A DNA stretch of 64,000 nucleotides from a virus (Duplodnaviria; Caudoviricetes): IMG/VR virus record IMGVR_UViG_3300042691_041259, positions 32,001-96,000 of that record, one strand, 5' to 3'. A program made the position numbers and the translations under genes. The notes under the pieces were generated by a model. It was not told where the DNA came from and ran no database searches. It saw only the letters and a list, made by a program, of their open reading frames with translations. Positions within the stretch are counted from its first letter, which is position 1, and every line of letters starts with the position of its first letter. This document shows, piece by piece, positions 6,107 through 32,590 of the stretch.

Positions 6107-6135
6107 AAAAAAAAGGTCTCCGAAGAGACCTTTTT
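6107..6135 (-). terminator. Rho-independent terminator after tail tube gene
   Basis: Stem AAAAGGTCTC/GAGACCTTTT with TTCG loop on the minus strand followed by a T8 run. Confidence 0.9.
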
Positions 6136-6154
6136 ATATGTTTTGACTTTCTGA

Positions 6155-13277: not shown

Positions 13278-15344
13278 TTACTTTGTTTTTGCAATCCATG
13301 GAAGTCTTAGGCGCGGTAAAGCGTTGTCGATTACGATTGCGAGTTGCGAATCCTCCACTATGTTTTGATTTAGCAGAGTCATTTGTTTTTCTGTGTCGTT
13401 TTCAATAGAATCAAATAACCTAATGTTTGTCATTACAAGAGGTGTTCCTAATAATCGATAGCTTCTCCATTTGTCGTCGGTTACTGTGTAATCGGCGGCC
13501 GGGACTTGAATGGCTGATGCATATATATTTTCTAAATCGGTAGTGTTGATTGGTGTTGGATCGTTGTCAATCCATTTCCGCGTCCACACATTCAGTGATA
13601 CTTGTCCAAATTCATTTGATATGTTAAGGAATATTGCGTACCATTGGTTTACTGCTAAATTTTGTGGCAGAATAAAGTATTTTTTTGTTTCATTCAAATA
13701 GAGCTTTATGTAGCGGCCTGCTATAAGTGAAAGGTGCCAACCCTTATTAACATCCGGATCAAACCCATAGAACAAACACTTTTCATATGTAAGTTCAGAT
13801 GTAAATGTTCCTACAGTTTGCCAACCAGAGTACTGTGCCTGGAGGAAGGTATAAATTTCAATTGGTATCAATACACGATGAACATATGTTGAAACAGTGG
13901 AATCCCAAGATCCATAGAAAGAAATTCCATTTGGCCTTGTGAATTTTATCAAATCATCTCCAGAAAACTTTCGAATAGCATTTATTGTAAACTGTACCAA
14001 TGCATGAGTTGCAGTAATGCTAACAACTGTAAACGGACCTTGTACCGGATCTCTTGGTATAACATATCCTGGATCAACATCTTTAAACCATGCAAGAAAC
14101 GCGCGGTTTTCCGTAATGCCAAAATCTACATTCGATTTGTAAAGAACTGCGGTTCGTGAAGCCGCGCCGCCACTAAAATAGTTAGGAATATACGTATTTG
14201 CAACATATGTATTAGAGGTTGGATCTACGTTTGTGGCTTGCCCACCAATAGTAGTTCTTAAGTCGTATTGCGAATTTGATACAAGAGTGTAGTAATTAAG
14301 GAACCTCTCCTCGGTAATAATCAAATCATCATTAATGTATGCTCGGATTGGATCGTAATCCTTTGATCCAATTTTAGGATCGTATTGCTGTGGCTTAGTC
14401 TTTTCTAATGCGTCAGCTAACAATTCTTCACCAAAAAGCTCCTCGGTGTTTCGAGAAATTGATTCCAAAAAGTCTTTATGATCTTGTGTTTCTGAACGGT
14501 TTGATTTTGGAGCGTATTTCATTAAAGCAACTTTCCAATAAACCGGCTTCTGCATAAAGTCACGAAATAGGTAAGAACTCTGAACTTCATAAATCCTATT
14601 AGTAAGAGGAAAGTATATGATGTCTCTTTTTTGTGGAGCAGACCCTACGCCAAAAATGTCTTCAAAATAGGCTTTATCAATGTGGACTTCAAATGGCATT
14701 TCAAAGTCCAATCCCATTGGACCAAAATTGATTTTGTTATCCGGAAACTCGTTGTTTGGAACTAGTACTTTAATACAGCACGGATCATCCACATCATAAA
14801 GAGTCCATTCTTTTAAAGTGACGTCTCTTCCATTTAGCAATGGAGTGGCCTTTGCGTATTCTACACTGTGGCCAAAGAGTTGATTGATAGTAAAACTTAA
14901 GCTCTTATAGAGAGAAACTGCCGGGTTAACTTGGTATGGTCTAAAGCTAAAGTTTTCAATCTTTGTAAGAGATGTAATGTTGCCACATTGGCAAGCTGAT
15001 GCAACTGGAACAAATCCCAAAAACTTATCTTGCGCAATAGGATCCTGTTCATATTTTACTGCAATGGAGTTTACCATCACTGGGCCTCCTGAAAGCAGAG
15101 TTATTCGAAAGTCAATCCAGAGCTCATTGTTTGGATCAAGAAGAATGTCCTGTAAATTTTCATCAGTAAGTTCAATCCAAGCAGTCTTAATTTGATTAGT
15201 CTTTGACCAACGAAATTCAAGCTTTACTGTACCGGCGCCGGAAGAATCATAAGTGTACCCGGTCAGCTTTGTGACATAATTGATAGATTGGTTGTAAGAG
15301 ATCTTTGCAAAATCACCTATCTGACTGAGAGTAGCTAATATCAT
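13278..15344 (-). CDS. Neck/head-closure protein (T4 gp14-like core) with extra N- and C-terminal domains
   Basis: Core NEFPD..INFGPMGLDFE..FEVHIDK..FE..FG....PQKRDIIYFPL.NR.YEV...F.Q....W...L.KY resembles gp14; 688 aa is far longer than gp14. Confidence 0.6.
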   Translation of the reverse strand: MILATLSQIGDFAKISYNQSINYVTKLTGYTYDSSGAGTVKLEFRWSKTNQIKTAWIELTDENLQDILLDPNNELWIDFRITLLSGGPVMVNSIAVKYEQDPIAQDKFLGFVPVASACQCGNITSLTKIENFSFRPYQVNPAVSLYKSLSFTINQLFGHSVEYAKATPLLNGRDVTLKEWTLYDVDDPCCIKVLVPNNEFPDNKINFGPMGLDFEMPFEVHIDKAYFEDIFGVGSAPQKRDIIYFPLTNRIYEVQSSYLFRDFMQKPVYWKVALMKYAPKSNRSETQDHKDFLESISRNTEELFGEELLADALEKTKPQQYDPKIGSKDYDPIRAYINDDLIITEERFLNYYTLVSNSQYDLRTTIGGQATNVDPTSNTYVANTYIPNYFSGGAASRTAVLYKSNVDFGITENRAFLAWFKDVDPGYVIPRDPVQGPFTVVSITATHALVQFTINAIRKFSGDDLIKFTRPNGISFYGSWDSTVSTYVHRVLIPIEIYTFLQAQYSGWQTVGTFTSELTYEKCLFYGFDPDVNKGWHLSLIAGRYIKLYLNETKKYFILPQNLAVNQWYAIFLNISNEFGQVSLNVWTRKWIDNDPTPINTTDLENIYASAIQVPAADYTVTDDKWRSYRLLGTPLVMTNIRLFDSIENDTEKQMTLLNQNIVEDSQLAIVIDNALPRLRLPWIAKTK

Positions 15345-28439: not shown

Positions 28440-28873
28440 AGTGTAAACACATTATCGTGACTGAGCGATACTTTTTCTCCAGCAGACAGCGGATGCAATT
28501 TACGCCATCCTTTTGCAAAGCCGTTTTTGATCATTTGCGTAAAATATGCAAAAGGATCTTTTGATTTTTCTGGATTGTAACTTCTCCAGTAACGTACCAC
28601 GTCCATCATTGCAAAAGCAATACAGTCTTTTCGATCTTCTTCATCACGATATCTCAATTTTTTAGAAGCTTCGCGAGCCATAGTCTGAAACATCTCAATT
28701 GCTCGAGGAGTCAGCGCATCTTTTTCGCGAGACCTTAAAACTTCTTCTCGAAGTTCTTTGGGATCAACGTAATAGTTTGATGGATTCTTTTTTACGCGGC
28801 CGGTGTTGCTGCGTTGGATGTCTCCCTTTCCTTCTCCAGGGAGTTCTTGTAGGTTGTTAGTTCCGTTATGCAT
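28436..28873 (-). CDS. gp55: Late-transcription sigma factor (T4 gp55-like)
   Basis: YV..KEL.EEV...A.EMF...A......Y.D.EDR.D.IA.A....VRYW..YNPEKS.DPFAYFTQ.I.N.F. Confidence 0.85.
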   Translation of the reverse strand: MHNGTNNLQELPGEGKGDIQRSNTGRVKKNPSNYYVDPKELREEVLRSREKDALTPRAIEMFQTMAREASKKLRYRDEEDRKDCIAFAMMDVVRYWRSYNPEKSKDPFAYFTQMIKNGFAKGWRKLHPLSAGEKVSLSHDNVFTL

Positions 28874-29421
28874 GAGTCTATTGCTTCTGATGAGAATGAA
28901 GTTCCTTCATCAACGGTTATTTTAAGTTCTTGAAGTTGCGCAATAGCGTTTTCGACTTGAACCAACACGTTGTCCATTTTACCGGTTACTTCATCTGGTT
29001 TGTTTTCATCTGTTTTCGGATTGTTTTTTATATCCGTTTCAGAATTGTATACACCAGCTTCAAAAAGTTTTACGTCGGACTTCTTAACGCTTGCCAACTT
29101 CTTATTAGGCAATATGATATCCACATTTTCGTTGTCGGCTTTTGATGTGTAGTCAAGAGCTTTAATCTGGACTTCGGTTCCAGCTGGAACCCCTTGTACC
29201 GCAACGCTAAGTTTTGCTTTTACGTACCCCTCTTGTTTTTCCTCTTTAATAGCAACGGTCCCGCCATCCCCTTGTGAATTGATTTCAACAGGATTGCCGG
29301 ACTTTGCTCGATGCTTTTTGTCTAGGGGCTGAAGGAGTTTAGCCTCTACTTTAGAGGTATCTCCTTTATCATCGACTACAGTAATGATTCCACCAGCGGA
29401 GTCAACCGCGGTAATGTTCAC
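28792..29421 (-). CDS. Hypothetical protein; probable -1 frameshift extension of upstream ORF
   Basis: Begins at GTG overlapping A_AAA_AAG_TGA of upstream ORF; contains SH3-like segments. Confidence 0.7.
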   Translation of the reverse strand: MNITAVDSAGGIITVVDDKGDTSKVEAKLLQPLDKKHRAKSGNPVEINSQGDGGTVAIKEEKQEGYVKAKLSVAVQGVPAGTEVQIKALDYTSKADNENVDIILPNKKLASVKKSDVKLFEAGVYNSETDIKNNPKTDENKPDEVTGKMDNVLVQVENAIAQLQELKITVDEGTSFSSEAIDSCITELTTYKNSLEKERETSNAATPAA

Positions 29422-29427
29422 TTTTTT
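29392..29427 (-). promoter_or_regulatory. Candidate -1 programmed ribosomal frameshift signal (A_AAA_AAG + 8-nt spacer + hairpin)
   Basis: Minus strand GGA AAA AAA AAG TGA ACATT ACCGCGG-TTGACT-CCGC(T)GGT. Confidence 0.65.
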
Positions 29428-30992
29428 TTTCCTAGCGTAGCGGTGTCGCCTACATTAAAACCAAGGCCTTCAGATACTGTGGTGGCTGCGGTTTCAGCGT
29501 TGGCAAGCTTAGCGTATTCAGACTTAAGAAAATTGATCTCTTCATCAATTGCAGAGATGAGATCTTTTACCTCAGCCTCTTCGCTCATTCCGTCAGGAAG
29601 ATTTTCAAGCTTTGAACGTTGCTCAGTAAGATGAGCTATTGACTGTACAAATTCTTCTTTAAGTGTAGACATCTTTTTCAATTCCTTTTCCTCCTCATTT
29701 AAGAGTTCGGCAAATGTAGAAGAAATGTCAGTCTTCATGAATTCCATTACAAGATTCTTGGTTTGAGTAGCATTGCAATCTGTGTAGAATACGCTTTCAT
29801 TCATCAATTTGTTTGACTTGTTGATGAAGATATTTTCTCCCAAGAAGAATAGTGTCATTGATTTGCCAGCGTCAGACTTTGATGTGATAGTCTTGGCAAA
29901 ATCCATTTCAAAAATATTGTTCCAGTTTTCAGAGATAGCAAAAATAGCATTAATGTTTTTGCTTTCAGTCATTCTGAATACTCCAGCATTAAGATATACT
30001 TTATGAATGTCTTCTTTATTTACAACCTTTCCATTGATCTTTACTTGAGACTCGCTGATTTCAATCACTTTGTCTCCTGAGTATAACTTAATCAAGCCTT
30101 CAGCCACAATTACGTTATCCCAGGTAAGAATATCAGCTACTGCTTTGAAAGATTCTGGAAGAGCTGTTATCTCATCGCTTGATGCAATGGCAATAGAATT
30201 ACCTTCTTTTTTGTATACTTGTGAACCTGCAAGGAAAAACTCGCTGGATTCTGCTATGAAAACTGGTGAATATACTCGGTTGATATTGCAGCTAGTATCG
30301 CTTGCTGCTATATGGAAAGCTCTTTCAGATTCAGAAAGAAACTTATGCAGATTTTTTACATTTGGATCAAATAAAAACTGTGAAGCCTTTTCCATGAGCT
30401 TTACTCTTGAAGAAGAATTGCGATTGTTCAAATACTCATCTAATTGAGCAGACATTGCTGGCATTAAATAGTTTGAAGTAGAACGCTTAATGTTTTCTAC
30501 AATTTTGTAGATTGTAATTTCTTCACGGAATTTCTCAGAATTCTCTGTCAATGATTTCAAACATTCATTAACAGTAGGATCCCAGTTAAATGGTGTGAGG
30601 GAAGCGATAACGCTTTCAATAATCATCCATTCTGGTTGTGCAGTCACAGCTTTAAGCTTTTCAAACATATATGAGAAAGCTGGATGCTTTGAGATCTCAG
30701 ACTCGCCAATAACAGCAAATGTCTTCTTTACTCCGAGATTGTTTAAGTTTTCGATTCTCTTTTCGATAACGTTCATTGAAATGAACTGCTTTGCAGACTC
30801 ATCCTCAATTTTTGACAGACCTTCAATAAGTGTGTTCAAAATATCTGCCTCAAGAACTGAGTTTTCTTCTGCAGAAATAGCATAGGCGTTATTGCTGTCG
30901 ATTCGACGGATAGCCTCGTTGCATGCATTAAGTACTGCGGTTGACGTTGTTTTGGTCTGCAGTGTTTCAATTCTATTTCTTAGTGTAGACAT
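29418..30992 (-). CDS. Hypothetical 524-aa helical protein, probably virion/late
   Basis: Long ORF, preceded by GATATATA motif, coiled-coil C-terminus, in head gene cluster. Confidence 0.8.
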   Translation of the reverse strand: MSTLRNRIETLQTKTTSTAVLNACNEAIRRIDSNNAYAISAEENSVLEADILNTLIEGLSKIEDESAKQFISMNVIEKRIENLNNLGVKKTFAVIGESEISKHPAFSYMFEKLKAVTAQPEWMIIESVIASLTPFNWDPTVNECLKSLTENSEKFREEITIYKIVENIKRSTSNYLMPAMSAQLDEYLNNRNSSSRVKLMEKASQFLFDPNVKNLHKFLSESERAFHIAASDTSCNINRVYSPVFIAESSEFFLAGSQVYKKEGNSIAIASSDEITALPESFKAVADILTWDNVIVAEGLIKLYSGDKVIEISESQVKINGKVVNKEDIHKVYLNAGVFRMTESKNINAIFAISENWNNIFEMDFAKTITSKSDAGKSMTLFFLGENIFINKSNKLMNESVFYTDCNATQTKNLVMEFMKTDISSTFAELLNEEEKELKKMSTLKEEFVQSIAHLTEQRSKLENLPDGMSEEAEVKDLISAIDEEINFLKSEYAKLANAETAATTVSEGLGFNVGDTATLGKKK

Positions 30993-31023: not shown

Positions 31024-31031
31024 TATATATC
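31024..31031 (-). promoter_or_regulatory. Putative late promoter GATATATA
   Basis: Exact 8-mer 32 nt before ATG at 30992. Confidence 0.55.
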
Positions 31032-31057: not shown

Positions 31058-32590
31058 TTACTTGACAGTTATGTGACCATCGATAAGCCCGCCTTGTATT
31101 AAAGTCAAAGGCGAGGATAAGTTAGCGTTGTTTGTTATTTGTATTTCGTTAGTTGCTTCCATTATTTGCTCAACAGTACTACCGATAGGAATACCAGCTC
31201 CTACAACAGGCATACCTATATAGATACCAAGAGCGTCAAGGTTGCCCGCTATTGATATGTTTGGTATAAGATTTGTGAGCATATTTGACCCGTTAGTGGT
31301 CTGTGCCTGAAATTCTATAGGCTTTCTTAAAATTTGCGAGACGCTTTCATTATTTGCGTCCTCTATCAAAAGCTCAAATTTGTTTACCGGAGTAGGATCA
31401 AAATCTGCGCCAACCGCATATACGGTAGATCCTATTATCGTGCCAGCAACTACGTTTGGCGATATTGTTGGCGCTATAGTTGCATGAGACGTATCATTAA
31501 CTATAATGCTATCCGTTCCCAGGTATGTATAACCTCCATTAAGAACTATGATATTTTCTACGTTTCCAAGAGCATTGATGATTGCTCTTAACGAAGCGCC
31601 CTGTCCAGATTGCGTGCTTACAAAAGCTTTTGTTGTTTCTGGTTTGGTTTCCGCTCCACTTGTGTTAAAGAATGGGATGTTCCATGTATAAGACCCAGAG
31701 TTTTTTAGATTTTTGACAATTGGAATCCAATCTGGATTGCCCACTCTTCTATAGTATATGTTAACTCTGGTAATAGGGCCTGTGTTTGTCCATGAAATAA
31801 TCGATTGGCCGGAAGAAAAGTAAATTTCACCATGGCTTGGCGAAGTGATTTCAAATCTTGGAAGATTGTATTTTTCATCAGATTTCCACTCAATGTTTGG
31901 TCCGCCTGGGTAATTCATACGGTTTCCGCCAAATCTTTCCGTAGTTGGATCGGTAACTGGGAAGTATGTTTCCAATTGCAATGGAACGTTGAAAGCAATT
32001 TCTGTTTCTGACTGATACGTGAATTCGAAAGTCTTTTCTATTCCTTGGTCTTCTGGGAATCCTACTTGGCATGGAACACGGAAACCTCTAAACTCTACTG
32101 AAAATACTTGTGTTTTGTAAAAAGTCTCTAGCACCGATTGCTGTATCTTAAAAGCATCAAGAGAAGTATCCGCTACAATCTTTACATCAAAGTTCATTGA
32201 TAGCGGTATTGGATTGATGAATGCGTTATATGTAATAACATCATTGCCAATCTGCTTTACATAATTGCCTCGTACAAATCGGTTAGCCATCATATTGGTG
32301 TTGATGGTACTGGAACTGAGAGTAACTATTCCACGAGGTATTGGATCAACATTTCCATCCACCATCTGAGGAGTCATACATTCATTCCACTGAAGAAAAT
32401 AGTCCTGTAAAAACCTCTCATCTCCACCAAAGTTATAGTAGAAAGGAACTGTCACCGATTTGATATCGGTATCCGAATAGATGTTTTCATACTGAACTTT
32501 ACTATTCAGAAGATTGACTAAACCAACAATCACAGCTCGCGCATGTACATTGTCCGTATTGTACTTATGTAGGTAGTTGGAAGTTGGCAA
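31058..32590 (-). CDS. Tail terminator / sheath stabiliser (T4 gp15-like) with C-terminal Ig-like extensions
   Basis: N-term VPFYY..G.ERFL...PRG...L.......R ... P.P..MNF.V.I......D..KI...LE.F resembles gp15; C-term ITSP..GE...G...ISW..G....VNIYY...W..I...N.GSY.W.IP Ig-like segment. Confidence 0.65.
   Translation of the reverse strand: MPTSNYLHKYNTDNVHARAVIVGLVNLLNSKVQYENIYSDTDIKSVTVPFYYNFGGDERFLQDYFLQWNECMTPQMVDGNVDPIPRGIVTLSSSTINTNMMANRFVRGNYVKQIGNDVITYNAFINPIPLSMNFDVKIVADTSLDAFKIQQSVLETFYKTQVFSVEFRGFRVPCQVGFPEDQGIEKTFEFTYQSETEIAFNVPLQLETYFPVTDPTTERFGGNRMNYPGGPNIEWKSDEKYNLPRFEITSPSHGEIYFSSGQSIISWTNTGPITRVNIYYRRVGNPDWIPIVKNLKNSGSYTWNIPFFNTSGAETKPETTKAFVSTQSGQGASLRAIINALGNVENIIVLNGGYTYLGTDSIIVNDTSHATIAPTISPNVVAGTIIGSTVYAVGADFDPTPVNKFELLIEDANNESVSQILRKPIEFQAQTTNGSNMLTNLIPNISIAGNLDALGIYIGMPVVGAGIPIGSTVEQIMEATNEIQITNNANLSSPLTLIQGGLIDGHITVK

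Follow-up and report, generated by a model that had tools for sequence, protein, structure and literature searches.

A real and deeply conserved −1 recoding site with a canonical signal lies in a new phage gene family, which we encountered on 64,000 nucleotides of a virus of the Duplodnaviria (Caudoviricetes; IMG/VR record IMGVR_UViG_3300042691_041259, positions 32,001 to 96,000; this whole stretch is called the window below). The site connects two open reading frames (ORFs) on the minus strand, here designated A and B, and our sequence comparisons strongly support programmed −1 recoding at their junction. We judge the chance that A and B represent one late gene decoded in two ways, with ribosomal slippage as the main step, to be somewhat better than even. 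A direct reading of the minus strand reveals GGA AAA AAA AAG TGA at positions 29432-29418, hence nine A's followed by a G (GGA, 29432-29430; AAG, 29423-29421; TGA, 29420-29418), and the GTG of ORF B overlaps the TGA of ORF A. An earlier, sequence-only reading of the window had described exactly this arrangement, a 524-amino-acid (aa) ORF with this 3′ end followed by an ORF in the −1 frame with a GTG, and the two products of 524 aa and about 730 aa that it proposed fit the fused length of 733 aa (524 + 209). A DNA contig from an independent public run contains the same A9 and has zero differences from the window; public runs were compared as assembled contigs, and the RNA contigs, from three runs, span 29468-29754 and 29003-29181, outside 29421-29430.

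The window contains two A8G words against about six expected from its composition, long A runs being depleted, and the run at the junction is the only coding A8 run in these 64 kb. Since the occurrence of an A8G word is by composition unsurprising, the case for recoding rests on conservation and not on the presence of the motif. The other A8G word of the window (6107-6140) flanks, on the 5′ side, a G+C-rich hairpin that leads into T's between convergent genes, and looks, from its sequence, like a two-way intrinsic terminator.

For the assessment of conservation, 62 loci were taken from viral and metagenome contigs, and 36 distinct junctions with 35-89% protein identity to A were analyzed. The heptamer A_AAA_AAG is present in phase in the window and in 35 of these 36 homologous junctions, each with a run of A8-A10 followed by a G at codon position 3, so that the zero-frame codons read AAA AAA AAG. 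The conservation of both the heptamer and the −1 offset, for which the sequence-only reading had proposed to look, is thereby borne out. In the homologues, the zero-frame stop codon (TGA, TAA or TAG) follows the AAG after 0-2 codons, and the close database homologues of A are all of similar length (33/33 possess 514-534 aa). The −1 ORF is open for 155-218 codons in the 35 junctions, with the exceptions of L037 and L041, where the contig ends after 40-49 codons. Upstream of the run, the −1 frame is closed within 1-15 codons, which pins the window for the shift to the A run itself. Some homologues, such as L004 (4001-6355; also P0035), encode an A protein of ~784 aa by way of a duplicated N-terminal helical region of ~250 residues and end in the same A9G site.

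The site is kept beyond what the encoded residues need. The first and second lysine codons are AAA in 35/35 junctions and the third is AAG in 35/35, while AAA accounts for 72% of the lysine codons in the remainder of these ORFs; other KK pairs of the gene favor AAG AAA, so that long runs are avoided. In the nucleotide alignment of the junctions, A8G is the sole invariant block. The run comprises at least nine A's in 34/35 junctions, and the codon preceding the three lysines, although it encodes varying residues (L, E, G, S), ends with an A in 34/35 cases, against 27-79% expected from codon usage.

By ancestry, A and B belong to a single protein, and the frameshifted state is the derived one, as the distant relatives with both parts in one frame show. 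A search with the A-family profile retrieved 409 related clusters, of which the close ones end at KKK and many of the distant ones consist of one uninterrupted ORF of 600-1700 aa. Dozens of the latter are matched continuously across the slip position by a fused-family profile that combines B with 100 residues of A (for example, P0060 at profile positions 3-303 and P0090 at 4-302). In-frame relatives, among them Lak megaphages, LR756500.1, P0041, P0058, P0060 and P0090, share with A plus B the core fold, a helical hairpin, one or more SH3-like barrels, the QxDG..[KR]E motif and a C-terminal helix; they differ from it in being single ORFs of 600-1700 aa without a frameshift and often in carrying repeated barrels and long acidic linkers. 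In the Lak phages, the protein is encoded by a single ORF of 1219 aa. The 631-aa protein of LR756500.1 joins the A core and its helical hairpin in frame to the second barrel of B; its C-terminal domain had been considered as a counterpart of the junction domain, a notion ruled out by its match to this second barrel. A gp15-like gene upstream is common to the Lak phages and LR756500.1, and LR756500.1 also shares the gp55-like gene, which stands next to the fused gene, downstream. The residue that corresponds to the position after the run varies freely in the in-frame relatives (T, M, S, D, E, K or I). Some in-frame relatives (P0041, P0058, P0086, P0105, L063) attain up to 1700 aa and possess up to several repeated SH3-like barrels with very long poly-Asp/Glu linkers between them. 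A profile search of the portal neighborhood of phage PTm1 found no family member there.

ORF A comprises a helical N-terminal domain, a β-rich middle part and a helical hairpin, after which 16 disordered residues run out in KKK; the AlphaFold2 model of A alone has a predicted local distance difference test (pLDDT) score of 81.8, with residues 509-524 below 50. According to alignment and model, ORF B contributes what remains of the SH3-like domain, a linker bearing the conserved motif QxDG..V.[IVL][KR]E, a second small β-barrel, the later conserved motif GVYNSETD..NPKT.EN.PD and a C-terminal helix. We modeled the junction in the in-frame close relative P0085, whose source is contig L066, by providing AlphaFold2 with an alignment of in-frame relatives together with separate rows for A and B. 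In this model (pLDDT 84 overall, ~90-97 for the barrel), the tail residues that are disordered in A alone form strand 1 of a five-stranded barrel, and the KKK of the slip site provides the turn from strand 1 to strand 2. Pfam family PF23044 (SH3-C_UBE2O) matches a repeat of the junction domain in P0041 with 27.4 bits against a cut-off of 21, and this repeat corresponds to positions 88-135 of the fused profile. On the strength of the continuous profile matches, the predicted structure and the Pfam match, the claim of the sequence-only reading, a single SH3-like domain cut by the stop codon, holds.

The searches yielded no family, solved fold or name for the protein as a whole. Neither A nor B gave anything above threshold in the Pfam and PHROG scans, and the ESM Atlas yielded no usable match. 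A Foldseek search of the A model against the PDB returned nothing at E ≤ 0.001, VIA-align matched only its helical hairpin, and the search against BFVD retrieved only uncharacterized phage proteins, including those of the Tenacibaculum phages PTm1 and pT24. Likewise, the fold search with the model of the fused relative found helical hairpins only. The comparison of the junction domain with the second barrel of B by hhalign was not significant, and neither the gene nor the site turned up in literature searches. The positions of the features are compiled in Table 1.

Table 1. Positions of the recoding site and associated features (window coordinates unless residues of the P0085 model are given).
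Feature	Position	Strand	Basis or remark
ORF A, zero-frame product, 524 aa	29418..30992	−	ORF list; ends in KKK
Slip site, A9 + G, zero-frame (GG)A AAA AAA AAG	29421..29430	−	heptamer A_AAA_AAG at 29427-29421
Zero-frame stop TGA	29418..29420	−	direct reading; ends the short product directly after the slip site
ORF B, −1 frame extension, 209 codons	28792..29421	−	ORF list
Hairpin ACCGCGG/TTGACT/CCGC(T)GGT, stem of 6-7 bp, 6-nt loop	29392..29412	−	8 nt after the G of the slip site
Junction SH3-like β-barrel, read across the frameshift	29317..29471	−	fused profile, AlphaFold2, Pfam
GATATATA copy lying 33 nt ahead of ORF A	31024..31031	−	promoter-like, presumed late
GATATATA copies	4799, 10748, 15381, 25134, 31024, 32607, 40595, 45899, 49966	all −	motif count
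Strand 1 (EAEL)	P0085 model residues 87-90		zero frame
Turn at S-K-K-K	P0085 model residues 91-94		slip site
Strand 2	P0085 model residues 93-100		spans the slip site
Strand 3	P0085 model residues 106-110		−1 frame
Strand 4	P0085 model residues 116-120		−1 frame
Strand 5	P0085 model residues 124-126		−1 frame

These data lend themselves to a model in which standard decoding would stop at the TGA (29420-29418) and release the 524-aa protein, with its last 16 residues as the orphan strand 1 of the barrel. A fraction of the decoding events would move back by one base within A AAA AAA AAG, probably by tandem −1 slippage of the lysyl-tRNAs in the P- and A-sites on A_AAA_AAG. The G would then be re-read as the start of GTG, and 209 further codons would be decoded. 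The resulting product of ~733 aa would complete the barrel and add the second barrel, the conserved motif and the C-terminal helix. In the near clade, the slip might be aided by the adjacent stop codon and by a hairpin 8 nt downstream. This hairpin, already noticed in the sequence-only reading, is confirmed: it folds at −10.9 kcal/mol (z score −2.46), and only 2/200 shuffles are as stable. It is kept in the window, L001, L002, L003 and L008 with −10 to −13 kcal/mol and a spacer of 8-9 nt. Within this near clade it exhibits two covarying wobble-wobble pairs, and 85.7% of the alignment cells are paired, against 78% in shuffles, a value that 7/500 of these reached. The data establish the conservation of the site, the lack of a start codon in most −1 ORFs, the single-frame ancestral architecture and the split domain. 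A ribosomal origin of the shift, its efficiency and a use for both products are inferred, as is the fixed ratio of the products that the sequence-only reading put forward.

Could A and B nevertheless be two independent genes, with B starting at the GTG that overlaps the TGA (a GTGA coupling) and the A-rich run serving as a leader free of a Shine-Dalgarno sequence? Such a GTG stands exactly at the stop codon in the window, in L001-L003 and in L037, and the leaders of this genome are indeed A-rich and devoid of Shine-Dalgarno sequences. In most homologues, by contrast, the −1 ORF lacks any ATG, GTG or TTG over its first 13-183 codons (in L021, over its whole length), and B can consequently not initiate independently there; the codon at the position of the window's GTG is GCA, GTA, GGT or GCC in most of them. 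Yet the residues upstream of any such start are conserved: in an alignment of 30 sequences, the conservation of the first ~45 residues of B begins at the slip site. These first residues are strands 2-5 of the barrel whose strand 1 resides in A, and the in-frame relatives fuse the A and B parts. A start-less and conserved B in most homologues removes coupling as an explanation, and we regard it as hardly conceivable; the GTG in the window's clade is an incidental by-product of AAG TGA. The sequence-only reading had named independent genes with their own starts and no slippery site as the finding that would speak against it; what the homologues possess, for the most part, is the slippery site and no start. 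An artefact at the DNA level, or phase variation, so that the true or alternating genome carries A10 and a single ORF through sequencing error or heritable switching of the run length, appears very improbable as well. Homopolymers mutate readily, contig L066 carries an in-frame A10, and L054 carries A8. On the other side, 35/36 independent assemblies keep the non-fused −1 state with three kinds of stop codons at varying positions, the 33/33 database homologues end after 514-534 aa, and the DNA contig of the second run is identical to the window. L066, a 1.3-kb Joint Genome Institute (JGI) contig of a close relative in which the A10 of the junction (681-690) reads in frame to yield P0085, also has an extra A that breaks the frame at another run: it contains A9 at 1188-1196 where A8 would keep B in frame, so that B is broken. 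This points to an artefact in L066, suggesting either a homopolymer error or an RNA- or cDNA-derived sequence; no sibling contig with A9 or A10 was found in our search.

A more serious competitor is the RNA polymerase. It could slip on A9 and add one A in a share of the transcripts, so that an A10 mRNA would direct the synthesis of the 733-aa fusion, possibly alongside slippage of the ribosome. Among bacterial heptamers, A_AAA_AAG is the one most prone to shifting, and runs of nine A or T cause efficient slippage of bacterial RNA polymerase (PMC5009743). Several observations weigh against the ribosome and are readily accommodated by the polymerase. The length of the run, at least A9 in 34/35 junctions, exceeds what the heptamer needs and matches that on which the polymerase slips; the preceding codon ends in A in 34/35 junctions despite its varied residue, when only 27-79% would be expected. 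Outside the near clade, there is no conserved downstream structure: L037 and L038 carry a disrupted version of the hairpin, the distant clade has none, and RNAalifold detected no consensus fold for that clade or for the family as a whole. Two other family lineages possess A-run −1 sites of their own, L068 (TCA AAA AAA AGT TAA; 1640-1700) with A8 in another phase (A_AAA_AAA) and a shortened B, and L069 (TCA AAA AAA AAC TAA; 2080-2130) with A9 followed by C (A_AAA_AAC), upstream of the whole SH3-like barrel. They differ in phase and next base from A_AAA_AAG and are poor ribosomal sites in E. coli. At L054 (5112-5202), only A8 is present (CTA AAA AAA AGC) and B lies in the +1 frame; the fusion would still result if one A were deleted, and possible readings of this locus are a misassembly, a dead allele and a variant that polymerase slippage alone could rescue. 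L066, with one extra A at each of two separate runs, might be derived from RNA or cDNA. A separate tRNA-Lys(CUU), present in many Bacteroidota, would make AAG less prone to shifting, and the genome bears signs of a Bacteroidota-like host (no Shine-Dalgarno enrichment, A-rich leaders).

What speaks for the ribosome is the phase and the context of the site. In the main family, the run is always followed by G (35/35), though the matching residue is free in the in-frame relatives, and the heptamer stands in phase in 35/35 junctions. In the near clade, the hairpin is found at the classical ribosomal spacing and with covariation, and we know of no role for a downstream hairpin in polymerase slippage. 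The RNA contigs of the three runs do not reach the run and lend therefore no direct support to transcriptional slippage. We consequently view slippage of the polymerase as possible but rather unlikely, and retain the ribosome as our preferred agent. The sites of the sister lineages suggest, from their sequences, that A-run sites arose repeatedly or migrated within the family. A more far-reaching proposal, about which we are more doubtful still, builds on this: recoding at A runs would have evolved more than once at the border between the core and the SH3 tail (inside the barrel in the main clade; before the barrel, with A9 then C, in L069; with A8 in another phase in L068), and the long A run, read by the gp55-directed late RNA polymerase, would represent programmed transcriptional slippage that sets the ratio of a "bare" to a "hooked" neck- or head-associated form. 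The extension's conserved [IVL]-[KR]-E and L-x-E motifs would then be possible cleavage sites for a T4-type head protease.

The source virus record, from an uncultured freshwater phage, comprises 202.5 kb and contains T4-like genes. Along the direction of transcription, the genes are a Rad50-like ORF (labelled by its sequence and size rather than by a family scan), a gp15-like tail sheath stabilizer, A, B, the late sigma factor gp55, the head completion protein gp4, the DNA end protector gp2 and the portal protein gp20. The sequence-only reading had placed the gene outside the usual context of tail assembly chaperones, and rightly so: with its 524 aa, A is not part of a small gene pair between the genes for the tail tube and the tape measure, and its neighbors are those just listed. 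Its designation of the region as a head cluster is loose, as neck genes and the late sigma factor stand beside those for head completion and the portal. If the sole ATG of the gp55-like ORF is used, this ORF shares the last 82 nt of B (28792-28873).

Nine copies of the motif GATATATA are found in the window, all of them on the gene strand, where 1.46 would be expected, and the three copies that were checked (31024, 32607 and 25134) are positioned just upstream of gene starts. Judged from its distribution, it is probably the late-promoter core of this phage, and we liken it to TATAAATA, its counterpart in T4. Because of this late-type motif and the synteny, the gene product can be envisaged as a late morphogenetic or virion protein acting near the neck or portal. 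Elsewhere in the window (14580-14726, minus strand), a weak match below the cut-off (E 0.002) to the T4 neck family PF11649 lies inside a 702-aa open frame, which may be a gp13/gp14-like gene. Across the whole genome, Shine-Dalgarno sequences are not enriched upstream of 131 long ORFs (8% against a background of 10%), the leaders contain 50-65% A at positions −16 to −6, and a single tRNA, Arg-TCT, is encoded. These features, together with relatives in Prevotella (Lak) phages, suggest a host of the Bacteroidota type.

Gene callers report a 524-aa hypothetical protein and a start-less or mis-started fragment at this locus, so that the predicted 733-aa product escapes annotation in hundreds of contigs from uncultured freshwater jumbo phages. 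Since the frameshift cuts a folded domain, the short isoform ends in an orphan strand, and the model thus suggests that the two isoforms differ in an all-or-none fashion in whatever the SH3-like module binds. At the same time, the family adds a case of recoding outside the paradigms of tail chaperones and capsids. It also offers a natural comparison set, consisting of in-frame relatives, three A-run configurations, and clades with and without the hairpin, by which slippage of the ribosome could be told from that of the polymerase in hosts without Shine-Dalgarno use.

Among known systems, the site resembles E. coli dnaX and the IS3-family insertion sequences (IS911, IS150), with which it shares A_AAA_AAG, a close zero-frame stop codon and, after a −1 shift, two products with a common N-terminal part. 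The hairpin located 8 nt downstream in the window's clade is likewise reminiscent of the dnaX/IS3 cassettes, but it is missing in most of the phage gene family. Unlike in these systems, no upstream Shine-Dalgarno-like stimulator was found, in a genome that shows no Shine-Dalgarno use, and the phage run comprises A9-A10, whereas theirs is A6. The product of the phage frameshift is the longer, domain-completing form, as in the IS3 elements and unlike the gamma product of dnaX. Transcriptional slippage at dnaX of Thermus thermophilus provides a further parallel, as there, too, a nine-base run is accompanied by nearby stop codons in the alternative frames and one gene yields a short and a long product. 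The phage run also has the length of about nine or more A or T that marks transcriptional slippage sites of the Thermus dnaX and Shigella spa13/mxiE type. The long form of Thermus dnaX is the zero-frame product, however, while that of the phage would need the slip. With the genes for 10A/10B of T7/T3, the major head protein of Lactobacillus phage A2, the structural proteins of the Listeria phages A118, A500 and PSA, and gpG/gpGT of lambda, the phage gene has in common that it is presumably late and would specify two isoforms, the minority form being C-terminally extended by extra small β-domains. In contrast to them, the A/B gene encodes neither a major capsid protein nor a tail-assembly chaperone but belongs to an unnamed 524-aa family, and where the slip sites of those phage structural genes are located at a domain border, that of A/B cuts through the domain itself.

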